A stretch of 64,000 bases of DNA from NCBI RefSeq assembly GCF_037042905.1, contig NC_087251.1, forward strand, positions 29,204,001-29,268,000. Reading direction: 5' to 3'. The notes under the pieces were generated by a model. That model was not told the DNA's origin. It worked only from the letters and a program-made list of their open reading frames with translations, and searched no databases. Source of the stretch: Lytechinus pictus. Lineage: Eukaryota. This document shows, in pieces, positions 1,773 through 61,700 of this stretch (its first letter is position 1; each line of letters starts with the position of its first letter). The position numbers and the translations under genes were made by a program.

Positions 1773-2370
1773 TTATTCTGAGTGAAAGATATTTAGCAAT
1801 ACCCTTGGACGTCCAAACTGGTCTTTTATCAGACTCACACTCCTCACATAATACAAGATTCTTATTACAGGTACAACATATTACATACAGGAATCATGAT
1901 ACATGTTTCTGCGGTCCCTATTTGACTACTGTGGTCTACATGTATATTAGTATATATTCTAATCTTAATAATTCTACCAGCTCCAACTATCGTACATGAC
2001 AAATCAAATATGACAAAAACCTGTTGCTTGTATCTGCATCTTCGTTCAGTGTTTAACTTCACTTTTTGTGGCACCTTATGCAAACAGGCATGGAGGTAGA
2101 AATGAAATGTAGGAAGCATGAGAGAGAGCGCAAGTCCTGCATATATTTCACTATTTTCTGATCGAGATTTGTTCAAAAGTTGTGTTAACAGCATAATTTT
2201 GCCAATTCTTCTTAAAATATGTGTGTTTTTTTAAGTTGAATTACTCAAGAGGAGAAGAAAGTAAGAATTCCTAAAACTCAAATTTTGTTTTCTTTTAAAC
2301 CCTGAATTGCTGGAAAAGGGTTGAGAAAGAAGAATTTTGTGGGAGTCTTTTAAGATTTTGTTTCAGTCAC

Positions 2371-2458
2371 CTCATATGAAAGTCCTTGATGGCTACGTTC
2401 TTGTAGGGCGCGGTTTTACGCTGACACCATAGTAAGAGGCCGTCTCTGGCGGTAGTAT
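2371..2458 (-). CDS. ACTN: Alpha-actinin alternative CH2-start exon B ([29 protein letters not shown])
   Basis: 88 nt, acceptor ...tctcatgcacag, donor AG|GTGACT, phase 1-2, open frame; paralog of 3023-3110. Confidence 0.93.
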
Positions 2459-5400
2459 CTGTGCATGAGATAACACAAACTTGAAAATCCAACATGAGGG
2501 GAACAAACAAACGAGCCATGCCATGCGTTAAATCTAGCACTTTCCTATTTGAATCTGCATACTAAAAGGTAGGAAAATGCTGTATGAAAAATAGGTTTGG
2601 GGTTAGATGACGAGTTAGACATACATTGTAATTGCAAAGATGTAGGAAAGAAAACATGCAGAAGAGACGATGACCCAGTGTGATGCATACACAGTAAAAA
2701 CGCTGTTTAAACATTTATACAATTACTCTACGAACCTCACAGAAGTTGTTTAAAGAACAATGCTTGATTAATCAAGAATTGAATATTAAATTTAATATTT
2801 TTTGCTTAAGATTTTAAACACTTGTTAAATATGTTTAAACCACTACTGTAATGTTCATATAGCAAATTGCATTAAAAAAAATTTAAACAGCAATTTTACT
2901 GTGTATTGTATGTTCAAATGGAAGTAACCTGGGGGGAAAAAAATGTTTAGGTTAGTGACACAGCAGTATCGTTTACCTCACGCAAATGTTTCCTTGTTGT
3001 TTTACAACAACAATTTGTTTACCTATTGTGGAAGTTCTGGATGTTGACGTTTCTGTAGGGGGCAGTCTTGCGCTTACACCACAGCAAAAGGCCATCCTTG
3101 GCAGAGTGATCTACATTGCAGGAGCGGCATACAGGGTTAAGAGTGAGCAAGGGTGGTGTGTGTGATAGAGAAGAGACAAGTGTTCAAGAAAAGATGATCT
3201 GACTAAGATAGACTAGTCGGATCAATGGAAGATTATCCCGGTTGAGATGAGTTTAGATGGTAAGTTACAAACACTTGCTTACCTTGGTATTAACTTAATT
3301 AATATAAAAAAATAATCCGTATCTTTTAAACAATGTACAACAAAACTTGGCTATGTTAAGATATTTTTGCACAACAGTTGTTCTTCTTTTCATCAGGGCC
3401 TATAGATACAAGGCATTGTGCTTTAAGTCTAAAAAGAATGTCAAAAGTATGAAGACAAGCTAATGACATCATAATGACTTAATTGTTAGGTCAAGAGTTG
3501 GTGAGTTCAACTCTGTACAAAATTTAATTATCACTAATATCTTTTGATAAAAATATATGATTTGTTGAGTATAAAGTACAGTAGTATGGCAAACTGACAA
3601 TAACAAGTTTTCCTGCCTCTCACATTTTTGACACCTCATATCTTATAGGCTTTGTACACTGAAATTACAGGGTTTTTTTAAACGGAGAGGCATTTACACA
3701 CTCAAAATCATCTGTTTTTGGGCAGAAAAAGAATCTGAACAAAGTGACTAAATAAGAAAAGTAGAAAGTTGGTCAGAAAGAAGGTCTTGACGGGTGAAAT
3801 GTATCCTCAGAAAAATGGTTACACAAGCCACTATAATCAAAGATGGAAGGTGACCATTTGTAGGAGAAATCAACTTGTATTAGGCTGACATTAAGAGACA
3901 TAGACAGATTATCAAGGAGTGACTATACAGGTTATACCTCATTCACATTTGGTTTACGTCTACGGCGGCCTATATGTAGCTATTGCAAAAAATGTTAAAA
4001 TGTCTGTTTTTGACTCGCCGTACGGCCGCCGTAGATCAAATGTGACTGAGGCATTAGTCACTACATAAGTTAGTCAGAGAAAGTGAGAACATAGAGATTA
4101 GTATCACACAATACCTCATCAGTTTTACTGACAATTAGTGATGACATCCATGAATCATATGATTTAGGGTTGAAATCCAAAATCTCCACATTGTATTTCC
4201 ATGTTGTATGTTTATTAGTGTGTACGTTCTTTGGATACATACTCACGTCTACAATATGTACAGTATTGCACAATCATATTATGAAAAAAATCTACCCAAT
4301 CCTGTGGCTCTTTCAATTATTAGCTCTCCTCAATTTTTCATCTACAATATTAAATAAATATAGGATGTGGACTACAGATAATGGTGAAGATGACATAAAA
4401 TAATACAAAATGAAATTAATGCACATAACATAGATAATAAAAATGCAAAAACAATAACTGACAAATTACCCTCCCCCAACACCCTAGCTGCATTTCATAT
4501 AAAATCCAAATGAACTCCTAGATGATCTGAAATATTCAAGTAGATTTATTTTGAGAATTTCAAAATGAGTTGATCCATGTAAGTTCTTCCTTTCATACAG
4601 TCCAAATCACAAAAACTGCAAATAACAAACAAACAAAAAATTGAAAAAAATGTGCCATTTCATACTTATTTAAATACTTTTCTGTTGGTCTATCCTTTGT
4701 TATGTGAAACTAATAGGAGATCAAAGTCACTGTGATTGTAACAGGGCAACTCCTCCAGGACAATGCCCCACATCCTGACATATCACACTTCGTCAGAGAT
4801 TACCTCACCCAAAAATGCAACTCATCTGAAGACAATCTGTAAGTCACCAGGGGGGGGGGGGAGTGACAATTGCTCCGGGCTTCATTTTGTCTAAGCTGTA
4901 GGGTTAGGGTTGGGTTGCATTCGGGTTTTATGTTAGGCTGAGGGTTAGGTTTAAGGTAGGGTAGCATTTAGTCTAAGGGTTGGAGTTAATAATTCGAATA
5001 GTGTGTGGAATTCAGAGCAGAGCAATTATCCCCCAAAGCAAATGTCATGTAACTCGAGGGGCTTTCTCCTGAGGGGGGGGGGGGGGGGGTCAATGGCATG
5101 GGTTATCGATGGCATGTCAGCAAACTTGCCATTTATAAGGTTTTATCAATTTTGTGAAAGACGGGCTGGGTGTTAATCTTGTTCATTTGATAATGGTTTT
5201 GGCTTTTGAAAAGGAAGATATCAAGGTCAAAGGTCAATTAGTGCTTCTCTAAGTTGATTGACCTTTCAGATATTTCTACAAAGCAAGGAAAGGAGCAATA
5301 GTAAATTATTAACACAATCACGAAAATACATTCAAAATATTCATCACAGCGTTATGACAATCACCATGCAACTGATTGACATACATGTATCTTTATTCTT

Positions 5401-8400
5401 TCTATTTACCGGTAAAAGAATAAAAAAATCAAAGAAAACTTTTCTTTTCTTTGACATTGTGAAACCAAGTTCAGCTCACACGACTGACAAAAGAGTTTCC
5501 ATTATGTTGCTTCAATGAAACTAAAAGGTAATGTATGTCATAGAGGAGCTACAATATGAACTTCCTTTTGAAAATGTGTTCTGCAATAATCTGTGGTTTT
5601 AAGTATGCAATCATTGTATGTATTTTTCAAGCCTTTTTTAATTTTTTACATTAGATAATGTTTAATGGAAACTGAAACTCATTGTCATCTTCAAGAAGTT
5701 TCAATTTGTTATTAATTGTATAATTTATGACATGCAAGCAATTTTGCAGTATATAAATCATGCTTAATTTGGAAGAAACCATGCAATGACATGCATTAAG
5801 ACAAATTGATTTCTCCTTCATCTCATAAAACCAAAAGGTAGTTAAGAGACAATTTTTTTAAAGCAATAGTAAAAGTCAAATATAAATGATCGAATTTTTC
5901 TTCCCAATGATTAATTTGGGTCTTTGGGATAAATTGAACACTGTATGAGGATAGAGCTTATTTCCAATATCTAAGTAATGGAAATACAGCACTTCCAAGC
6001 AGGGTGTGTACAATACAAAGATTTAATTTCAATAAATTCATATTTTGTAATGTTCACGACCCTGCAATCCAGGTAAAGGTACTAAATAGTCAGTAGAAGA
6101 ATTTCCTTCATCATAATAAACTTCTTTGACCGATTCCCAATCTCATGCTTATGAAACAGATGCTTCCATCCATACAGGGCCCCAATCGCACGGAACTAAG
6201 TTACTTTTATGGGAACTTTGCTATCAAACTACCATGGTAACAATGCCAAGCAGCCAATCAGAATCAAGGATTTCAAAGAAGTTACCATTGGAAGACAAAG
6301 TTACCACAACAGTAATTTTGATGCAATGTGGTCCTGATTTGGACTTGAAATGGAATGCATGTCACATATTGTCACCCAGTGATATTTCATAAGATCCATT
6401 GTTTGCTATAGATCTATAAGCTTCTTTGACCTTTGACCCCAATTTTTAATGTGCATACATAGATGCATTTCCCCCACCTTCTATTGAGATGTCCTGGATA
6501 GCAAATCGTAGGATGATGGTCCAGATCATACCCAAGATCATCTTTAGATTCTGATCCACAATTTCTGGTAGTGGGAAGAAAAAAAAAATTTGATATACAC
6601 ACAAAGAATTACAAACTAGCACAATAATACAGCATAAAATGGTATTTATAGGGGTGTGAATGGTCTGCAATTTCTCAGAATAAAAAAAAATTAAAGTACC
6701 AGAATGTTTAATAATATTTTCTTTTCCATAGCATAGACATCTGTACATATAATATCTCTAAAGGGGGTGTTGTAAGAAAATATTTGCAATCAATCGCAAA
6801 TATTCTGTTGCAATTTTACAATTGATTGATCACTTTTAACTGTAGTAAATCAGATTATACTCCTTGTTTCATGGAGCAGATTAGCAATCAATCGCAAATT
6901 TGCAATTAATTGCATGGCATATGCTTGATTTCGGGAATGAAAAATAGACTTGCAATTGATCGCAAGTTTCTTGCAATGCCCCATAAGTGTATTTTACCTC
7001 AGTGGTGAATTGCTTCTCTGATCCCAGGTGCTTAAGATTCCATTTATTTATTACAAATCAAATTAACATACCCTGAAACCTGAGCCGACAACTTTGCAAA
7101 TGTAAATTTTGGTTATTAATTGATAATTTAATCAATTATAGGACTGATGATGCTAGTATGTGGTATAGCGCCCTCTATCATTCATACCGATATAATTTTT
7201 CATTATCTGCTTATCCATTCATCCAAAGCTTTGGTAATTATGGGTCATTAAAGCTTCACTTTAGTTTTCATAAATTCCCCAATAACTGTATGTCATTGTT
7301 CCAATTCATTAATAGATGAATATACACGCTCTAGATGATAAGGACATAAAAAATTTGGTAAATTTGATAAATTTGGTGGTTTAATACAAAAATCTAATAT
7401 GATTGGGTCCCCAATGCCTCAATCAAAATATAATAACTGCATATTGTTGTCTTTATTATGTAAAACCACTTCTCCAGCATAGAATGAACTGAATATTTCT
7501 GTAAATAATCTTTGTAACTTTCTGTTATTCTATACTAAAACTGAAAGATATATCAAAGTTAAGAATCATACCTTCTGCACCAATGGATACAAGCTTCACT
7601 CCTTTTGAACTGATGTAGTCAAGAGCCTTGTTCACGTTTGCAATCTTGTGGACGCGCATCTTTCCGCGGTCTGGTTTCGGAAGTTTTTCACTTGAAATCA
7701 CTTCAAGGAGGGTCAGAAGTTTGAGACCATTGCAAAAGTCTTCTGAGATCTCTTTGATCTCGGCGTTGGCCTTCCTCAAGTGGGAGTTGCACCATGCTGT
7801 AAATGTCTGTATTCAGAGAGAATAAGAAATGCCCTGTTAGAGGTCACATCAGATTGAATAAGACCAAGATGATCAAAAGTTGAACATTTACATTTGATCA
7901 TATATTTTATATTGATACAAGCTACGCAAGCACCAAATCAGTGAGTCTACGTACTTGCATTGGCTGACCATTTTGAATTGATGAGTCTATACTGTTAATG
8001 TTAATTAATTTACATAAGGCTCATTAGTATAGTAACCTCAATTACAGGTATGAATTTAGTGCCATTACTTATGAAAGTCCACATTCATCATTGGACATTT
8101 TCTCAGTATACTTGCTCAAGATACACAAAATCTGCAGAAACCATGGTTTAAAACCAGATTTAATACCACCTTTTTGAATTTGGGCCATCATGTTTCATCA
8201 CTTCGAATAGATTTAATTGTTCGAGTACCAAAATGATAAATTGTACATCTATTTTTTACAGACACATGTACGTATTATATGCATCTCATTTTAATAGTTA
8301 TACACCGTTAAGACCGCTGATTTGTGCTACTGCTTTCATTATGGGCTTACACTGACATGGAATGATCTCTTCCTGCATGAAGCCATTAGAACATGTACAT

Positions 8401-41400: not shown

Positions 41401-44400
41401 GACTGTTTGTTTACATTTTGTTGGACCCATCAAGAATTTATGAAATTGTAAGGTAATCTTGTATGTAATCTCTATTATCCCCCCAAAAGTTCAAGAAAGA
41501 CAATTGCACATTACCAATAACTTTCTGTTGTGAGGACATACAATGTACATTGTAAATGTAAGGCCTCCATCTTAGACTACACGTACATGTATGTACTACA
41601 TGTATGAACAGGGTATACTACAGAGCGTATAAAATAAAAGTATACACTTTGAAATATTAAATGTTTCTAATATCCTGAAGCTTTTTCCAGGTTTATATGT
41701 TCGTATAGGTGACTTTGAGGGAATGACGATAGGAATTCAACAAATCTTTCCACTATAGTGAGCACCATTTACTTTTTTAAAAAATTGTGAAAAATGATCA
41801 GTGCAAAACTATGAAATATGGATAAAAGTAGATGTTAATGACAAAGGGCACATGGGCATTAGCTAAAAAATAACAATTTGAAGGTATCTTTTTCCTTTCT
41901 AACTTGTTTTCTTGGCCAAAACTCCCTCAAGCCCCACCGTCCCCATACACAGACCATCACAATATATGTAGCACTGATCCACATGAAATAATATGCTTGA
42001 TTGTTCTTGTAATTCCATGTATTCCTTATTAATATTATACCTGGGGAAAGTATGGAGAAACAAGTATGAAATGTTAACACCTTCAAATGACAAACTTACA
42101 TGTAACTAAAGAAAAATGCTGGAGATGTCTGAAATGAACTTTTGTATAAATTTGGCTTATTTGTTTCTTTTTATGTCCCCAGATCAAGCTGACACAAACA
42201 ACATAAACACAATAATGTTTAGCTTGGAGCTTGGCCCTTGGGTAAAGTATTTATTCAGGTAGGGAAGAGAGAAATGGACAGCACAGTTACTTCATTTTTG
42301 CACGCTTTACAGAAATAGACAGTGCTCATTCAAACACTCTGTCAAAATTAAACTTTCATCTGATAGATGAGATCAAAGCCCAAGAATATATATGAAAAAA
42401 TTATCCCATTGTCATTTTTTTTCCAATTTGGGGGTCTTTTTCAAAGTGTATTGTAAACTTTTTTATTGATACACACTGTAGTCTGTAGACCCTAGCCTAG
42501 GCTATATAGATCTAAAAAAAGTTAGACTTAATATAATAATGCAGTTTTGAGTGGATGATTAAGATGAGAAAAGGAGAGATCTGAGCTGGATGCACATAAT
42601 TCAATGGGCTACTATGTCAGGCAAGCAAAGACACGACTTTTAATGACAAACCTCTTAACCATTTTTTTTTTTTTTTGTAAGGTTGAGGAACATATAACTA
42701 TAACTACCCAGCGGGCTGCGCTGCTGACGGTGCATGCACGGGGACAGGTCCCCGGGGTGTACACCTACCTTTCGCTGTTGTCTTTCCCAAGCTGGATCCA
42801 AAACTTCATCACGATCCCATTCTTCCTCCTGTTTCATATAATCATCTTCGTCGTCATCGTAGGCATAATGGTCTTGGTTGCCATAGTACGCCATTTTGCC
42901 GGTGGTTACAAGATTTTCCCTCTACAGAACTAAAAGTTTATACAAAAATCGGTGATCGTCCGACGTCTACGAGCGCGGACCCCGGCGGTCGACGATCGTC
43001 GATTTCAACTTTCAAAGGTCACACAATAAGTATTCAACTCGAACCGGCCCCAATACATGTACCATGTGACCCGGAAGTGAGTATGGAGAATTTAGAAATG
43101 ATCATAATTAGTGTTCTTGAACATAAATCGGAAGGGGAAAAAAACATCTCCAAAATATTGACGACTCGGGTGACATGATTGATGTCTAAATGAAGAAATA
43201 AATTTGAACCAATGACCATCAGGCACAAAAAAAAGAATTCAAATCCAGCTATGAACTTTTGTTTTATTCTATACACCTGATATTGTTTTTTGTATATATG
43301 ATCAACTCGTTTACTTCATTAAATAAAAAATAAAAAAAAGAAATCACGTTCGAACCCCCAAATTGTCGGTTGTAAAAAGAAAAAAGAACTAGGCGGATGC
43401 GGTAACAAAAAAGAGCTCAAATTCCTGTAAATCTTTTGTTATTGGACGAGTCAGTCGTATCATAATACCTAAAGCCATTCACCCGATTGAAAAAGGGTAT
43501 TACGAGTAAAGAATTGATTTTCTTCCACGTTTTAGCCTACGCAGTGCGGGATTAAAAAGCAAAATCTACGGTAAAAAAAATCGAAAGCCCCGCGCCCGTT
43601 ACAGAATTGCAGTCAGACTCGAACTCCGAGCCATGTAAACAAACCGACACTCAAATATATTCTCCCAACCTCTCCGCACTCCGTAATATGTAATTCAAGA
43701 GCCATATTTGGCAAGCCCGCTCTATCGCGTTAGCCAAGTGTGTGTATTATAACTGCACTGGCTTCGCATTCCGAACCTTTCATAGTACACCCCGGGAGGA
43801 ATGCGAATAGCATATAGGCTATAGGTATAGCGATTGCCTCGCCGTGTGTATACCCAGTTCAGTCAAGTATATGTACCGGATCCTTTGAATCATCAAATAT
43901 TTTACTTCCAGCCCGAAAGTACAGTAAAACACGAACAGTTAAATTCGAAATATACATATTTCACAAACTATTATTCTAGAGAAACTGATAAATCTTTATC
44001 TCATTTGCTTTATAAAAGTCTTTTAGGCTTTGGGGTTAAATTGATATTTGTTTAAAGTCGTGAATTGAAGGAAGTTACCTAAACAGAAACAGAAACAAAG
44101 GAAGTTAATTTCATTTCTCCAGGAGAAAATCACAAGTCACGGGTGTCAGGCTTAATATCATTGGATAATGAACGATTTGACACATTGCATACATATTCAA
44201 TTAACGTATGTTCATTTAAATACCATGGAACTATATCCATTGTAAGACAATATACTGAACAGAGCTCAAGTCTGGAAAAGTGGGCGGGGTCGTTACACCA
44301 CATGGCTTGCTTCAGCTCAGTCAATAGAGCTCATAATATACACTGTAAAGTTGAAGTTTCGTTGCCGGAAGTTGGTGTGTGGCTTCGACCTATCGCGCGC

Positions 44401-50400: not shown

Positions 50401-50519
50401 GATAACATGGCTAAATAAGAAAACGCCTACCGTACCTTTTTTTGCTGTCTTTCCCAATCCGGATCCAAAAGACCTTTATGATCCCATTCTTCTTCTTGCT
50501 TCATATATTCCCCGGCCAT
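2371..50519 (-). CDS. ACTN: Alpha-actinin gene, 5' portion (N-terminal extension, CH1, start of CH2); spliced, continues beyond position 1
   Basis: Exons join in frame with GT-AG boundaries to give ...YMKQEEEWD...WERQQ(R/K)K / [12 protein letters not shown]...KLVSIGAE / [29 protein letters not shown] / D..A(K/R)DGLLLWC.RKTAPY.NV.I..FH, the hallmark alpha-actinin actin-binding domain. Confidence 0.97.
2690..2903. mobile_element. MITE with CACAGTAAAA termini and TA flanks, between the two alternative actinin exons
   Basis: ta|cacagtaaaaacgctgtttaaa ... tttaaacagcaattttactgtg|ta. Confidence 0.8.
3023..3110 (-). CDS. ACTN: Alpha-actinin alternative CH2-start exon A ([29 protein letters not shown])
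   Basis: 88 nt, acceptor ...tgcaatgtag, donor AG|GTAAAC, phase 1-2, open frame. Confidence 0.93.
3935..4053. mobile_element. Second, diverged copy of the 1624-1772 MITE family
   Basis: tacctcattcacatttg ... caaatgtgactgaggca with TTA on both flanks. Confidence 0.8.
4862..5056. repeat. Non-autonomous element with degenerate TTAGGG-like internal repeats; related copy at about 30000-30150
   Basis: tgacaattgctcc ... gcaaatgtcatg ends; internal gggttagggttgggtt/agggttaggttt; similar 3' end at 30130-30150. Confidence 0.55.
6177..6334. mobile_element. Degenerate Harbinger-like MITE
   Basis: cag|ggccccaatcgca ... tgcaatgtggtc|ctg; internal ccatggtaac/agccaatcag motifs shared with elements at about 56130-56285 and 62750-62915. 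Confidence 0.5.
6478..6564 (-). CDS. ACTN: Alpha-actinin exon ending CH1 ([29 protein letters not shown])
   Basis: Poly-T tract plus CAG acceptor, donor G|GTGGGG, 87 nt, phase 1-1. Confidence 0.97.
6763..6982. mobile_element. Harbinger-like MITE rich in ttgcaatcaat motifs; inverted copy at 60975-61187
   Basis: ggggtgttgtaagaaa ... tttcttgcaatgcccc imperfect TIRs; matches the reverse complement of 60975-61187. Confidence 0.7.
7572..7806 (-). CDS. ACTN: Alpha-actinin CH1 exon ([78 protein letters not shown])
   Basis: Acceptor ...ctctctgaatacag, donor G|GTATGA, 235 nt; conserved CH1 sequence. Confidence 0.97.
9447..9526. mobile_element. Miniature TTAA-flanked (piggyBac-like) element
   Basis: ttaa|cccattgcctactg ... 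cagtagtcaactgg|ttaa imperfect inverted ends. Confidence 0.55.
10555..10878. mobile_element. Diverged partial copy of the 31005-31492 MITE family
   Basis: Shares gtgaggacaca, cgctactc, tgcctacg, ttcccatagcaacaagat.gctttac.tgaagtg and aatgctagc blocks in the same order. Confidence 0.7.
11434..11824. mobile_element. Harbinger-like MITE
   Basis: Perfect TIR TACCCCTTTCATAAACCCAATAAAACA; flanks TTA/TAA; internal ttatccgcat repeats. Confidence 0.85.
16284..16346. mobile_element. Minimal MITE, essentially two TIRs; same terminus ends a longer element at about 12975-12995
   Basis: aggcatattcagaccgcct ... aggtggtctgaatacacct. Confidence 0.6.
16726..17115. mobile_element. Harbinger-like MITE
   Basis: agggccgtctgcaccagcc ... 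ggctggtgcagcaccgcct; internal tagcgcgcta and gggattattt repeats. Confidence 0.7.
17290..17456. mobile_element. Palindromic MITE with about 60-bp arms and CTG target duplication; fragment at about 18940-19030
   Basis: gtttcataaaactgatcgtaagttaagagcgactttaagaacgact ... agtcgttcttaaagtcgctcataacttacgaacagctttatgaaac; CTG on both flanks. Confidence 0.85.
18691..18882. mobile_element. Tc1/mariner-like MITE
   Basis: ta|cagtggtattaaatagttgaaccccaccagaaaat ... attttctggtggggttcacaaactttttagcaccacta|ta. Confidence 0.75.
20743..21502. mobile_element. Non-autonomous piggyBac-like element
   Basis: ttga|ccctaattctaggccgggg ... ccccggcctagatagg|ttaa; GC-rich subterminal blocks. Confidence 0.75.
22035..22256. 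repeat. MITE fragment with clustered TGACGCT/AGCGTCA motifs abutting the Sola2-like left end
   Basis: About eight tgacgct/agcgtca copies ending in ttatgaaatgggccccag, a terminus like the other CWG-flanked MITEs; no partner TIR seen. Confidence 0.55.
22283..28603 (+). mobile_element. Autonomous-looking Sola2-like cut-and-paste DNA transposon, antisense within actinin intron 1
   Basis: Perfect 31-bp TIRs AGGGGTCAAAACCACTATCTCGGCGCAATTG (22283-22313 and 28573-28603); internal transposase ORF; repeated subterminal motifs; left end reads GAG (Sola2 ends are GRG). No clear TSD. Confidence 0.88.
24260..26824 (+). CDS. 854-aa DDD-type transposase, Sola2-like
   Basis: Uninterrupted ORF; motifs MDFAENY (D480)...EVQSAYW...[11 protein letters not shown] (D557)...[18 protein letters not shown] (D599); CLCQKH and CYCQSC Cys motifs; basic, coiled-coil-like N-terminus. 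Family assignment is from recalled motifs. Confidence 0.85.
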   Translation: MARSRAEIQAAYRQRKRQKMGENAYLQAERQRVKKYYKPVDTLTKKRVQERRTQVNRRVRKHRDRVRRVRQEMEQRRNMNIDDVGYTADDDSAISDISPDISNQLGLTIKMPFQKPRRKRVSRCLSKAHRNIEQLTLKLQAAKKDKTRLKKRCERLQNKVMTSMPTRKEVKNTPRSRTNSQLEDEGIDPSRVPSIRKRLLFSNAMMEEIQGSSNTSRKMSDRRILHQLVAGSKVLKKYRLLKLLRTETGLGRRNLSKANKHTKSTQQSRPTWTSLHLEVVEFLHRDDVSRMCPGKKDSSKGKDGTKCQKRYLTDYLSNLHERYLAETDGKRKISLSAFNRVRRTLCPHIKPVQFASRDLCLCQKHQNVALKLKALQSLGGTVNDNPDEFIKEHNEAQVDILLNNLQSEQIQFDEWSRVEVDGRKKIKIIRISQSKPDFIKRFQKEIQEFRQHVVRIKNQFRALLDCKNSLKPDECIIQMDFAENYVCVPLEEVQSAYWCQDGVTLHPIVVYFRNDGNELVHQSFAAVSDDRNHNTSTILAILKELIPHLHKVHYWTDSPTSQYRNKTMFSLVSEHADIFDGIHAQWNYFESGHGKGPCDGIGGTIKRLADTAVKRRAAVIQDAYDFFAWASQERHECSGSKINFFFVAKGDCAAGSLLIAERWSSVKTFPGTMQMHAVIGHDNGVLLRKLSCYCQSCYGSREEGQVETMCEGWKHNRLLYRSTTMSTTGASVTPQSPSNTSMSENDESSPTTNEASSGTYGVDDWVAAVYDKQWYIGKVLKFDSSDIHIDFMAKCSGTHTGGKYKWPVKKDAIWVAWDKVLCHITPCFCDTSQRIVTLSPEQKALIEEAFKAVV
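31005..31492. mobile_element. Harbinger-like MITE
   Basis: About 35-bp TIR gactctgttctcactaccgtcctaaaactagttt / aaactagttttaggaaggtagtgagaacaaggtc. Confidence 0.8.
33480..33980. mobile_element. Old inverted-repeat element with about 70-bp imperfect arms
   Basis: 33480-33550 (gttcaatgtccattttcaaatttaaacagcaatatgaatcatgattgaaa) is approximately the reverse complement of 33910-33978. Confidence 0.6.
35390..35851. repeat. Truncated non-autonomous DNA element with repeated GGGGTCT..GGAAC motifs
   Basis: ggggtctaaggaact-like motif recurs about five times; ends in gagtgcccccccccgg; GC-rich against its background. Confidence 0.55.
36553..37137. mobile_element. Kolobok-like MITE
   Basis: aggacaagtcca.ccc ... 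gggtggacttgacct|ttaa; long imperfect arms containing gaaaatttcatcaaaatc.gatgtaaaataag. Confidence 0.8.
38600..39453. mobile_element. Helentron-associated (HINE/DINE-like) element with about four 165-180-bp internal tandem units
   Basis: Subterminal inverted repeat gtctc(a/g)cctgcat (38620) / atgcaggcgagac (39439); terminal hairpin gtctcgc...gcgagac; tgacctttgacc units at about 38743, 38917, 39084 and 39263. Confidence 0.75.
39596..39870 (+). mobile_element. tRNA-derived SINE
   Basis: tRNA-like head with B-box gggttcaattcc, central ctcaacccaggt...aaatgggtacc block, tail ending ataaat...tattattatt. Confidence 0.8.
40162..40730. mobile_element. Second copy of the same Helentron-like family (about three units)
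   Basis: aacaagcggaacgcctctggcagtctcgcctgcat start; units at about 40296, 40465 and 40628; degenerate end ctatagt...caggcaagacaa. Confidence 0.75.
41621..42478. mobile_element. Tc1/mariner-like non-autonomous element just downstream of actinin exon 1b
   Basis: ta|cagagcgtataaaataaaagtatacactttgaaa ... tttcaaagtgta...ttttttattgatacacactg|ta. Confidence 0.75.
42769..42894 (-). CDS. ACTN: Alpha-actinin proximal first coding exon (1b), [42 protein letters not shown]
   Basis: Matches the actinin N-terminal motif [20 protein letters not shown]; 126 nt, phase-0 donor AAG|GTAGGT. Confidence 0.95.
42895..43860 (-). promoter_or_regulatory. Putative promoter/5' UTR of actinin exon 1b
   Basis: CpG-rich against a CpG-poor background; ETS-type CCGGAAGTG at 43071-43079; perfect CArG box CCATATTTGG at 43702-43711. 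Confidence 0.55.
44640..45878. mobile_element. Older Tc1/mariner-like element interrupted by the 44907-45486 MITE
   Basis: Right end ggtttcgttttatttgggacgcgctg|ta; internal inverted match tgatacctcaatcacagaaaatt (44738) / aatttttctgtgattgaagtatca (45597); left terminus not seen. Confidence 0.6.
44907..45486. mobile_element. Young Kolobok-like MITE with about 190-bp near-perfect inverted arms and TTAA duplication
   Basis: ttaa|agggatggtccgggctgaaagtatttatagcttaataaat ... atttattaagctataaatactttcagcccggaccatccct|ttaa. Confidence 0.92.
50436..50519 (-). CDS. ACTN: Alpha-actinin distal first coding exon (1a), [28 protein letters not shown]
   Basis: 84-nt open frame from ATG at 50519 to phase-0 donor AAG|GTACGG; clear homolog of the exon at 42769-42894; lies in a CpG-rich region. 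Not in the ORF track. Confidence 0.85.
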
Positions 50520-57292: not shown

Positions 57293-58753
57293 CTAATCAG
57301 AATCACTGTCTTTTTGTCTTGAGTAACAGTTTGTGCTGCGATAATGTCTCTTTTTACCTGAACTGTTCAATTTAAACTTCTTAAAGCCATTCTTACTGCC
57401 ATCCTTGGTTTGACTTGATGCTTCAGTGTCCTTGCTACACCCAGCCGCTTCTACATTATTTGAACAAGCATGATTACTTCCCTTCGATGTGCTGGCCAGG
57501 TTTGAATTTGAAATGCTTTGACTTGATTTTGACTTTGGTGGCTTACTTTTCGTTTTCTTGGAACTAGTAGATGGTTTAGCACTAGTTTTTGAACTGCAGG
57601 ATGCTTCAGAGCCTGTGGCAGTAAGTTTTGGGACTCTCTTGGGCGAGTTTGAAGGTGAGGAAAGGTTGGACGGTGCTAATCTATTCATTAATGAAGCTGC
57701 AGGAGGCTCTCTCTGAGGACTCCTTGATGAAGGCAAAGATGAGGATGTTGCAGATCTACTAAATCCACCTGTTAAACTAGATATCTCCTCTAATGCTCGC
57801 ATCCTATGGCGGCGTAGTGAGGCAGCTCGCTGACGGGCAGAGTCTGTCCTTTGCCTGAGCTGGCCAACAATCGCAAGAAACTGTTCATTGTCATCAGACA
57901 TGCTAGAATCGCTGTCACTCACTGTCGTAATCCGTTCCTTCATCACACGGCTGAAGGCCAAACGCTGCTGCAAGCTTGATAGTCTATCCTTTTCCACCTG
58001 CGACGGGGAATTTCCCATAGATTTTCCAACCAAAGACCCATCCTTCCCTTTCTTACTCTTCTGACGCATGATGCGGCGTAATAGACGACTGCGATATCTC
58101 ATCACCAAGAAGTCCTCTGATTCATCACTACTACTAGAGGAATCACTAGAGCTCCTGCTCTGTTGTCTTCCTCTCCGCCTGCTGTCACTTGATTCATGAC
58201 TGGCCTGACTTGTGCTGCCTCTATCAACAGCATCCGATGTACTTGTCCTACTCCTGTCTTTCTGACCTCTCTTCTGCAATGATGGCCCACCAACACTCAA
58301 TCCAGGAGTATCGCTGCTGGTGCTCACATTCCTCTCTTTACGAGCCTTGGGCTTCACCTCAGCATTACTCAATTCACAATTTGTTGGATCACTGTCACTA
58401 TCACTGATCATTCCAAGTTCCGGAGGCAACAGTGATGGCATGACAGGACCATCCCTGTCAGAACTGTTCCCGTCATCACTGTGATCACGTACAAAGTGGA
58501 GGTACAAGCTATCTGGGCTCAAGGCACTATTATCTGAGGAATCGCTGCTGAAGCTGTGGTCAACCTCTCGCTGGATAAAGGAATCAAAGAAGGCAAGCAT
58601 CCTTGGGTCCTCATCTTTGGATTTGTCAGAGTAGTCATGGGAGAGAGCTGATCCTGAGCTTATCATCAAGTTGAAGTACTGCTGGCGGGTGAACATCTTC
58701 CTTGGGGATTCATTGCCATCAGACATCCCTGGCAATTTAATTGCACTCCAAAG
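57293..58753 (-). CDS. DCAF5: DCAF5 last coding exon: conserved EDPRMLAFFDS motif followed by a long Ser-rich low-complexity tail
   Basis: Acceptor tctctgtatattggcag at 58754-58756, in frame with the 480-aa ORF; stop at 57293. Confidence 0.93.
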   Translation of the reverse strand, partial: LWSAIKLPGMSDGNESPRKMFTRQQYFNLMISSGSALSHDYSDKSKDEDPRMLAFFDSFIQREVDHSFSSDSSDNSALSPDSLYLHFVRDHSDDGNSSDRDGPVMPSLLPPELGMISDSDSDPTNCELSNAEVKPKARKERNVSTSSDTPGLSVGGPSLQKRGQKDRSRTSTSDAVDRGSTSQASHESSDSRRRGRQQSRSSSDSSSSSDESEDFLVMRYRSRLLRRIMRQKSKKGKDGSLVGKSMGNSPSQVEKDRLSSLQQRLAFSRVMKERITTVSDSDSSMSDDNEQFLAIVGQLRQRTDSARQRAASLRRHRMRALEEISSLTGGFSRSATSSSLPSSRSPQREPPAASLMNRLAPSNLSSPSNSPKRVPKLTATGSEASCSSKTSAKPSTSSKKTKSKPPKSKSSQSISNSNLASTSKGSNHACSNNVEAAGCSKDTEASSQTKDGSKNGFKKFKLNSSGKKRHYRSTNCYSRQKDSDSD

Positions 58754-61700
58754 CTGCCAATATACAGAGAGAACAAGGTATTAACATCACATATAATATC
58801 AACTAACTAAGCAAACCACTCTACTTGTAAGTATAGTCAATCTTCAATTAGAAACAAAACATCTGTAGAATTCATTAATATGTTCAACCTAAAACATGTA
58901 TAGACATACTATGCACAGCGACACTTCATTTTTAAATATATTGTACAAGTAAGGTCTAGATTTTCATATCATTTCTGAGTGGTATATGTTTCTGCTAGGA
59001 TACTCAAGAGGTTTTTTTTTCTTTTGATATAAAATTTGATTTGTGCCAAAGAAAGGTTTGACTGCAAGGAATGTATCCATGAAACCATTATTCTACAAGA
59101 GTTGCAGTCATATCTGACTTTGGCACAAGATTAATTTTATATCAAAGCAAAAAATACCTCCTTATTATCCAAGCGCAAACTTAATACACAAAAATGTTAT
59201 CAACCTTAATGGGAAAAGATACTCTTTCAGGAGATAAATAATAGTTTTGTGTTCATTATATACTTGATGTGTCAAGTTTTTTTTACTCATGCATTGGCAA
59301 GGATATCATGTACAAGTAGCTTATGCATGCAATGACACATGCGATCATAGTTTTATAATCCAAAGTAAGCCCAGTTCAAATCCTGTGAACTTGAATTACA
59401 GACTCCTTTGAAGATATCCATATTTTACAATCAAGTTTTAATAAAATCTTACCTTGATGACTTTCTCCACTCCAGACGATGCAATGAGGAAATTTCTTGA
59501 ACTAAACCTGACTTGATTGACAATCTGACGATGTCCTTTTAACACATGGGATGCTTCATTCACTTGTTGAACTAAGAGAGCAAATAAAAAAACCAAAATT
59601 GCTAAAACTGTAACAGTAGAAACTCAGTACAAAGTAACAGCCATAATATATTTCTCGACTATTTGCACACATTCTTATGAACGCTCGACATCACTTGACC
59701 GTCTTTCATAATCTTCACCCCATAATAACATTGGTCTCATCTGCACATCCATCCTACAAGTTTGGTTACTTATCAATCCAAAAAAGAAAGTTGCTAGCCC
59801 CACAAGAGTTTCGACCCCTGTTAATGAACTCGACTTTGCTAGGACTGACTGTAAAAGGTGGCAAAAAATCCCCAACATAAATACTACCTAGATTGGTAAT
59901 TCAACCAAGCAGTGGTTCTGCTCTGCAAATATTCAAAGTTCTCATCAATTTACTTTTCTCATTAATCCATATTACTATTTGGGACCCTTTCCCTACTTTT
60001 TTTTCTTTGTTTCAAATCATATAAATATAACGAGGCACCACTAAATTCACAAAAGGTTACCAGTAATGAATTTTCAATTTAAGATCCAATGCCATCTGAA
60101 AGAAGAGATTCTCGTCTTTTCCCACCATTTATTTCCATTTCAAATCATACAAATATAACAAGGCACAGGAGGTCACCAGAAATTATTTTTTTAAGTTAAA
60201 GATCCCATCTGAAAGAGCAGATGCGCCTCGGAATAGTTTACTAGATAGATGGCGCATAATAAATGCTGTGTATTATTATTATTCTCATCTTTTAAAATGA
60301 TGCCAAATGTGCTACCATAGGATAACTCCACTTTACAAAGAGAAGAAATTCACTACCATTACTTTTGGTAATCAAGGGACTATTATAAGTTTTCTTGTCT
60401 ACAGATACACGCTTGTCCTTCCACTATTGTTCAGAGCTGACAAGTGGATTAGCAATTAATTTGGTCTTCATAGGAGTCATGAAATCCCTCCCAAAATTGG
60501 CAAACTGATTAGGCACATCCTGTTCATTATTATGAACAAGAACAAATGCAAAAGCCAACCTGGTTCTAATTTCATTGTAGTTAAAATTGAGGGGAATGTT
60601 TTTATTTCAGGAAGAAAACTAATTTCAAAGAAATTCAAAAAGAGATAAAGTATGGGTATTATAACTCTAAAAAATAGCCCTTTGGATTAGCGCTTGGGTA
60701 ACTGAACTATAATCATGAGGTCAGAGCAAATTGGGAAAAGGTTGGAAGCGGGCATTTCTCATTTGTTTTATGAATGAATAACAACAATAGAGTATTCATC
60801 TTTCATTAGTCTGAATACTTAAGATTAGTTTTGAGGAAAAAAAAAACAGTTGATTAGTTTAACATTTTCCTTGCTACTCCCTCACTGAAATAAATTGTGT
60901 TCATCTGTTATTGTGGTCTCAAAAAAGTGGAACTGGCATTTAAGACTGATTTGAAATCAATCACAACCTCTGATGGGATGTTGCTAGAAACTTGCAATCA
61001 ATTGAAATCTATTTGGGTTCCCTTATCAATCATATGCTTGCAATTAATTGCAAATTTGCAATTGCTTGGTTTGGTTCTTGCAACATGGAGTGTAACCGAA
61101 TTTCCTATAGCTAAAATTTATCTATCAGTTGTAAGGTTGCAAGAGAACATTGCACTTGATTGCAAATATTTTCTTGCAAACATCACCTTATATGGGGCAC
61201 AGATGAACAACAGTGAGACAAATAAACATCTTTGGTATCTTGTACATATGACTTACTTCCTTCACATGGATCTGGAACTCTCCAAATATAGAGGTTGAAA
61301 TCATCAGAACCGGATAAGACAAACTAGGGAAAAAGAAACATAAGAGCACTATGAAACACAGTTGGGCGAATTCTCAGATAGTCTAATACCACATGGGCAA
61401 TACCCATTTGGTCTACACTACACTTGGTCTAATGCTCAGTAATAGTCCAAAGGCCAGTTGGTCTAATTTCCACTTCAACTATTGGACCAAGTCAAGTGGA
61501 TATCAATAAAAAAAAACCTAACTGGAAATTAGACAAAATGGCAAATGAGCTAAATGCAATTACACCAAATGATTAATAGACAAACTAGGATTAGACCATG
61601 TGAGATGAGACGTATTGAAAAGCAGACAATACAGGTGTAAACCAATCAGCAATTAACATAAAAACAACACTATTAAAATACAATAATAAAATTGTCCTCA

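Follow-up and report, generated by a model that had tools for sequence, protein, structure and literature searches.

Tandem copies of alpha-actinin exon 4 in the sea urchin Lytechinus pictus as members of an echinoderm exon cluster at the start of the second calponin-homology domain

Known alternative exons of alpha-actinins and the locus of L. pictus

In Z-discs, dense bodies and adhesion sites, actin is cross-linked mainly by alpha-actinin. In flies, one actinin gene serves both muscle and non-muscle cells through alternative exons located at the end of CH2, the second calponin-homology (CH) domain. Here, we analyze a stretch of 64,000 nucleotides from the sea urchin Lytechinus pictus (assembly GCF_037042905.1, contig NC_087251.1, positions 29,204,001 to 29,268,000 of the forward strand), hereafter called the window, whose own coordinates are used unless preceded by C7. 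In this window, an alpha-actinin gene located on the minus strand carries two tandem copies of its exon 4, designated 4A and 4B. These copies are a real, conserved and frame-coupled pair of alternative exons, both being intact and equal in length and phase. Our interpretation of the whole, which we consider probable, is that they belong to an old, echinoderm-wide cluster of tandem and mutually exclusive copies of exon 4, the choice between which would be made by regulated splicing.

An event of the same kind affects exon 8 of vertebrate ACTN2 and ACTN4 and of Drosophila Actn, where a tandem duplication likewise lies in CH2 and provides alternative actin-binding domains. PMC8373072 presents a mutually exclusive exon event as common to ACTN2, ACTN4 and Drosophila, i.e. 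to human and fly. However, the exon concerned is a different one: arthropod isoforms differ at residues 228-254, at the end of CH2 (all three equal-length pairs returned, a spider pair of unequal lengths being left out), whereas the echinoderm isoforms differ at residues 150-178. Two other sources place the previously described isoform differences in a peptide that covers the end of the actin-binding domain as well as the first repeat (PMC2289344, PMC4550062). According to the second one, the exons 19a and 19b of ACTN1 and ACTN4, which encode a Ca-sensitive or a Ca-insensitive EF-hand, are mutually exclusive and tissue-specific and arose in chordates (PMC4550062). This event is located in the EF-hand domain, outside the actin-binding domain, and is unrelated to that of echinoderm exon 4.

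Equal-length pairs that differ in one short segment of CH2 are also found in the molluscs Ostrea edulis, Ruditapes philippinarum, Gigantopelta aegis and Sinanodonta woodiana (P0261/P0265, P0285/P0292, P0327/P0328 and P0264/P0268). In these four pairs, the four to seven differences all fall in residues about 170-197, i.e. in the equivalent of the neighbouring exon 5, which suggests that molluscs have an independent alternative exon pair in CH2. Neither a duplicate of the exon-8 equivalent nor a duplicate of the mollusc type was found in the 18 kb searched in L. pictus, where both exons are single-copy; it follows that echinoderms duplicated another CH2 exon in a separate event. An exon-8-type pair is also absent from the annotated isoforms of the other echinoderm species compared. 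Hence, a different CH2 exon has been duplicated in each group, i.e. residues 150-178 in echinoderms (in two or three copies), about 170-197 in molluscs and 228-254 in arthropods and vertebrates. Such a pattern suggests that CH2, which forms the regulatory half of the actin-binding domain, has been a recurrent target of isoform tuning. A model of another kind was encountered in the nemertean Tubulanus polymorphus, whose isoform X2 (P0121, 912 aa) includes two tandem copies of the complete actin-binding domain; this reflects either an error of the model or of the assembly or a gene duplicated locally.

The very same event as in the window, with no structural difference, is present in the RefSeq alpha-actinin models of echinoderms, which are automatic predictions. 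Actinin gene structure and splicing across animals have reportedly been treated by Lek et al. No paper describing the echinoderm exon 4 event was found by title or abstract, the article of Lek et al. 2010 (Mol Biol Evol 27:773) lying outside this search. The kind of feature is conventional and its position is not described for other animals; it changes no concept, public gene models already including both exons.

Two intact and frame-coupled copies of exon 4

Exon 4A, or A-type exon (3110..3023, minus strand), and exon 4B, or B-type exon (2458..2371, minus strand), are both 88 nt long, preceded by AG and followed by GT. They are 100% identical to the corresponding segments of the L. pictus RefSeq isoforms X2 (P0001) and X1 (P0125), respectively, and 4B is also seen in RNA. 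When used as protein queries, their stop-to-stop frames retrieved the alpha-actinin-like isoform X2 of L. pictus for 4A and isoform X1 for 4B. These isoforms (804 aa each) differ by nine residues, all found at positions 60-87, inside exon 4. The two copies are separated by an intron of 564 nt (3022..2459, minus strand) with ordinary GT..AG ends. Both open with two nucleotides that close a split codon (G+AT, encoding D) and close with AG, to which the first base of exon 5 is added to complete an S codon.

The surrounding exons are constitutive or lie outside the window. Exon 2 (7806..7572, minus strand, 235 nt) is joined to exon 3 (6564..6478, minus strand, 87 nt) in RNA by the joint 7572 to 6564. 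Exon 3, identified at 100% by tblastn and covered by spliced reads, which also back its donor at 6478, is the donor for 4A or 4B. Exon 5, which takes up the frame after exon 4, is located outside the window (C7:29199654-29199576, minus strand), and the remaining exons extend down to C7:29176097.

Judged from its sequence, the gene encodes an alpha-actinin. The orthologue of Lytechinus variegatus (P0241), which is 99% identical to the L. pictus models and was used for the Pfam search, shows the domain order CH (two stretches), Spectrin (four), EF-hand_7 and EFhand_Ca_insen. The best solved relative is human alpha-actinin-2 (4d1e), with an alignment over residues 19-895.

The copies share 61 of 88 nucleotides and 19 of 28 amino acids. 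Since the 60-nt flanks are at chance identity (15/60 upstream and 22/60 downstream), the likeness between 4A and 4B is restricted to the coding units, where it is far above chance. According to the Nei-Gojobori method, 15.0 of the 17.5 synonymous sites differ, i.e. they are saturated, versus 12.0 of the 66.5 non-synonymous sites. On these counts, the duplication is old and both copies are under purifying selection. The reading frame stays open when exon 3, either single copy and exon 5 are joined. In contrast, joining 4A to 4B leads to a stop 14 codons into 4B, and skipping both copies leads to a stop nine codons into exon 5. A tblastn search with 12 variant peptides, in an 18-kb interval bounded by exons 6 and 2, found no third copy in L. 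pictus of the kind seen in Diadema and sea cucumbers; the next best match, 'KPYRKVHI' (E about 0.2), was rejected, being surrounded by stops and showing no further likeness.

Most of this had been anticipated in a preliminary description made from the letters of the window. The two intact paralogous 88-nt exons in the same phase, 564 nt apart, have the coordinates, borders and peptides that it claimed; its attribution to an alpha-actinin agrees with the Pfam domain order and with the 100% match to the L. pictus alpha-actinin-like models; and its statement that including both copies or neither shifts the frame is borne out by the early stops obtained in each case. It had also described an old and selected duplication, in keeping with the saturation of synonymous sites and the conservation of replacement sites, and a comparison of the dN/dS type, which it proposed, gives a pS of 0.86 versus a pN of 0.18 between the copies.

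An exon cluster shared by echinoderms

In six echinoderm species, the annotation includes equal-length isoforms whose only differences fall within the 29 residues encoded by exon 4. For instance, X1 and X2 differ by eight residues in L. variegatus, by seven in Strongylocentrotus purpuratus and by nine in Diadema setosum. Three isoforms (X1, X2 and X3) are annotated in Diadema antillarum, with eight to nine differences per pair, and in the sea cucumber Apostichopus japonicus, with seven to nine differences per pair. The duplication, which the preliminary description thought might already be on record, is thus present in RefSeq in the form of these isoforms. Furthermore, Asterias rubens X3 and A. 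amurensis X2 have an A-like form. A sea-cucumber cluster, one member of which is named Holothuria, includes three full-length proteins of 892 aa (P0246, P0379 and P0378) that carry an A-like, a B-like and a third exon form. They are encoded by contigs of 4.0-5.1 kb, and since the open reading frames are uninterrupted on contigs of this size, these correspond to spliced mRNA.

The peptide of L. pictus 4A is shared at 28/29 residues with L. variegatus, 27/29 with S. purpuratus, 25/29 with D. antillarum X2 and 24/29 with A. rubens. For 4B, the values are 28/29 in L. variegatus, 24/29 in S. purpuratus and 23/29 in D. antillarum X1. A maximum-likelihood tree built from 28 exon peptides unites the A-like forms found in urchins, sea star and sea cucumbers (support 89/78) and, more weakly, the B-like forms (74/83). 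This is moderate evidence that the A and B types had split before urchins, sea stars and sea cucumbers separated. In each of three hemichordates, the only annotated protein follows the consensus usual in animals. Hardly any variation is seen at residues 155-177 in 115 of the 116 listed non-echinoderm proteins (among 123 scanned), whereas the echinoderm forms depart from this peptide. Exons 4A and 4B are members of an old echinoderm exon cluster that is already found in the automatic gene models of six species.

In D. antillarum, a second contig encodes a partial actinin of 219 aa with the same three forms of exon 4 (P0363, P0364 and P0367). This contig probably represents either a haplotype left unmerged or a partial duplication of the locus.

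Exon usage and putative control of splicing

RNA was mapped on positions 2200-7900 of the window in four runs from three studies. Runs X20 and X21 are raw RNA-seq data from one study, of which about 6 in 100 reads were used. Runs X1 and X5 are contigs of two runs presumed to be RNA, from two further studies, and contigs cannot show absence. The joint between 6478 and 2458, i.e. between exon 3 and exon 4B (GT..AG, minus strand), was recovered in all four runs, with 2 reads in run X20, 14 reads in run X21, one contig with a depth of 457 in run X1 and one contig with a depth of 9.3 in run X5. The joint between exon 2 and exon 3, used as a control, gave 8 reads in run X20, 8 reads in run X21, a depth of 329 in run X1 and nothing in run X5. 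In every junction read, the first mate maps to the plus strand, which fits a stranded library and a gene located on the minus strand. Of the two forms, it is 4B that these samples use. Junction reads 6478>3110 and 6478>2458 had been proposed as a comparison between the two copies: the latter are present in the four runs, and the former were found in none of these runs, the tissue of which is unspecified. One copy would be spliced between exon 3 and exon 5, as shown for 4B, and 4A would most likely be restricted to a tissue or stage beyond those sampled, plausibly muscle.

Since 4A is silent in these runs, its exclusivity with 4B rests on the reading frame. The frame itself enforces it: since 88 nt is not a multiple of 3, transcripts carrying both copies or neither have an early stop, and they may be removed by nonsense-mediated decay. 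No short intron, incompatible splice-site types or recognisable docking/selector pairing appears to contribute.

Steric hindrance between exons separated by a very short intron, as in the case of exons 2 and 3 of alpha-tropomyosin, is one means of exclusion. It was rejected here, the 4A-4B intron being 564 nt long, or about 340 nt without an inserted repeat. Another known mechanism relies on incompatible U2 and U12 splice sites. It was also rejected: the donors are GTAAAC and GTGACT, both acceptors are AG, and all are ordinary GT-AG sites. In Dscam-type exclusion, conserved and complementary intronic elements pair, one being a shared docking site and the others being selectors located upstream of each variant. 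The 4A-4B intron has a strong predicted fold (z = -6.0). However, this fold results from an inserted inverted-repeat element (2687..2906) similar to a miniature inverted-repeat transposable element (MITE), the 30-nt arms of which (2687-2716 and 2877-2906) are 87% complementary. This MITE-like family is dispersed in the genome, with numerous copies on every large contig and 1169 first-look candidates, 40 of which were scored and found to be 73-78% identical and located on many contigs. Besides this repeat, the sizeable inverted repeats between 2200 and 6600 are limited to two palindromes. The strong fold was hence rejected as a specific selector/docking structure, being traced to a genome-wide repeat; this rejection concerns inverted repeats of sizeable length.

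The copy used would instead be set by regulated choice of splice sites, both copies having weaker pyrimidine tracts than their constitutive neighbours (12/20 for 4A and 13/20 for 4B versus 18/20 for exon 3 and 15/20 for exon 2). A candidate regulatory block (2517..2660, minus strand) located upstream of 4B contains three GCATG motifs of the Rbfox type, which start at 2659, 2526 and 2521. Three such motifs in the 250 nt upstream of 4B compare with about 0.28 expected, and at least three are found in 25 of 2550 sliding windows of 250 nt. Flanking intron conservation is usual for regulated exons. A 1.9-kb contig whose B exon is the same as in S. purpuratus X2 can still be aligned to the stretch of about 200 nt that precedes 4B, and the aligned part includes the blocks that hold the GCATG motifs; this alignment was made at the level of translation, where third codon positions are not visible. 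The conserved block may be what regulates the choice between copies.

In the four runs, two intronic segments of the gene, 6593-7165 and 3919-4109, are covered very deeply by RNA on both strands, and numerous variant letters and loose ends are found there. They behave as expressed dispersed repeats, outside the actinin message.

Position of exon 4 in the protein and possible consequences

Exon 4 corresponds to residues 150-178, since the numbering of L. variegatus coincides with that of human ACTN2 in this region. The second CH stretch of Pfam extends from 153 to 257, and exon 4 thus encodes the start of CH2. Ribeiro et al. 2014 (PMC4259493) map the binding site of phosphatidylinositol 4,5-bisphosphate (PIP2) to residues 165-181, a loop located between the first and second helices of CH2, and describe R163, R169 and R192 as the PIP2-binding platform. 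Exon 4 includes two of these residues, R163 and R169, position 169 being R in 4A and K in 4B. The nine differences between 4A and 4B are located at 151, 152, 154, 162, 169, 172, 174, 175 and 178, five of them falling within the published loop 165-181. Hence, two statements of the preliminary description about the protein stand: the segment starts CH2 (Pfam 153-257 versus exon 150-178), and it overlaps the PIP2-binding region given in PMC4259493 (165-181, plus R163 and R169). According to the same description, the LLLWC helix of this segment may pack against CH1.

The nine differences occupy surface-loop and helix-cap positions, and they would likely affect PIP2 regulation or the opening of the actin-binding domain. 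Direct contact with actin appears a less likely target. In a 2026 modelling paper, actin binding is attributed mainly to CH1, over which CH2 exerts a steric control, and I153-T172 is given as an actin-binding site of ACTN3 (PMC13055992). Tissue-specific tuning of actin affinity, which had been put forward in the preliminary description, is a pure hypothesis.

In the peptides retrieved, position 169 is R in ACTN2 and K in ACTN1, and it is because of this residue that the 4A query drew ACTN2 matches and the 4B query ACTN1/4 matches. Being a single residue, it provides only a hint of 4A being the muscle-type form. We can tentatively speculate further, with a low degree of confidence, that echinoderms, in which the ancient bilaterian pair of exon-8 type was not found, built their own cluster at the start of CH2, in which the A form (R169, ACTN2-like) would serve muscle and the B form (K169 in Lytechinus, ACTN1-like) would be of general use, PIP2-controlled opening being retuned and Rbfox-type GCAUG motifs setting the switch. 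If true, this would be a convergent and lineage-specific answer to the problem of muscle versus non-muscle actinin, which vertebrates solved by gene duplication. Moreover, the location of the echinoderm variant on a mapped PIP2 site provides a natural sequence pair for probing the role of this loop in lipid regulation, and exon-specific knock-outs are feasible in L. pictus, which is a laboratory species.

Weighing of the interpretations

Several points weigh against an old cluster of mutually exclusive exons under regulated splicing. The depth on exon 4A is zero (bin 2964-3154) and no joint to 3110 is found in any of the four runs; the 16 raw reads that span the 4B junction bound the usage of 4A in runs X20 and X21 only to less than about one sixth. 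As 4A is silent in these runs, the missing 4A-4B joint is uninformative on exclusivity. Protein homology can be the basis of a RefSeq isoform model, so that such models are no proof that 4A is spliced in urchins. Furthermore, only 29 columns underlie the tree of exon types, the support of which is modest, the single copy of hemichordates is deduced from only one annotated protein in each of the three species, and the enrichment in GCATG was counted post hoc, after the motifs had been seen. Lastly, any biochemical difference between the 4A and 4B forms is presumed from their sequences.

Among other interpretations, the one that survives best, which we nevertheless hold to be unlikely, is that the copies are kept by the partitioning of their expression alone (subfunctionalisation), the substitutions being near-neutral changes at the surface. 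The nine differences are indeed all conservative or polar, and the core motif LLLWC..RKTAPY and R163 are unchanged. However, type-specific residues are kept in urchins, sea star and sea cucumbers, the A type retaining R169 and NFH and most B-type exons retaining KDFHM. In addition, the echinoderm copies left a strongly constrained consensus (residues 155-177, in 115 of 116 non-echinoderm proteins) in a repeatable way.

Somewhat less likely still, the choice between 4A and 4B might depend on which of two alternative promoters is used, with first exon 1a at 50.5 kb or 1b at 42.8 kb; it would then be no independent splicing decision, and either promoter would provide a form of exon 4 of its own. 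Two homologous first coding exons do exist. Exon 1b (42894..42769, minus strand), which reads ...ERQQRK, matches the N-terminus of L. variegatus X1/X2 and of S. purpuratus X1/X2, and its homologue 1a (50519..50436, minus strand) matches that of S. purpuratus isoform X3. A contig of run X1 has a loose end at 7808 that continues into the end of exon 1a, revealing a splice from 1a to exon 2; this run thus joins 1a to exon 2 and uses 4B, and S. purpuratus X3 likewise combines a start of 1a type with an exon of B type. However, S. purpuratus X1 (A-type) and X2 (B-type) both have a start of 1b type, so that 1b, in models at least, is not tied to either copy.

It is very improbable that 4A is an unused relic in L. 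pictus, found in isoform X2 only through homology modelling while the gene effectively makes only the 4B form: its zero coverage and the lack of a 3-to-4A joint in 4/4 runs from three studies, with 4B joined in 4/4, would agree with this, but the frame of 4A is intact, its AG/GT borders are present and its phase is correct, its peptide is kept at 25-28/29 in three other urchins and at 24/29 in a sea star although synonymous sites between the copies are saturated, an A-like copy is found in mRNA-sized contigs of sea cucumbers, and a neutral stretch of 88 nt would not remain open and this similar over such distances.

Other features of the gene and its surroundings

Exons 1a and 1b are located about 7.6 kb apart and about 35-43 kb upstream of exon 2, each having its own ATG and GT donor. 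The RefSeq models of L. pictus (804 aa) begin at a Met of exon 2 (MRVHK...), without a first coding exon. About 91 N-terminal residues that are encoded by the genome and present in the models of L. variegatus (895 aa) are missing from them. Judging by this comparison, the public L. pictus models look truncated at their 5' end.

A search of the 812-Mb genome found no second actinin gene. A candidate at C7:20.11 Mb was rejected, its CH-domain peptide reading like beta-spectrin, an identity that is presumed. In this CH-domain gene (C7:20109495-20120487, minus strand; positions 1480-1788 of locus L005), which is 9 Mb away, a single uninterrupted exon corresponds to exons 3 to 5 of the actinin gene. 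Upstream of the actinin gene and on the same strand, the window also contains an open frame of 495 aa (57296-58780, minus strand) that is rich in Ser, Asp and Arg and is probably a large exon of a neighbouring gene.

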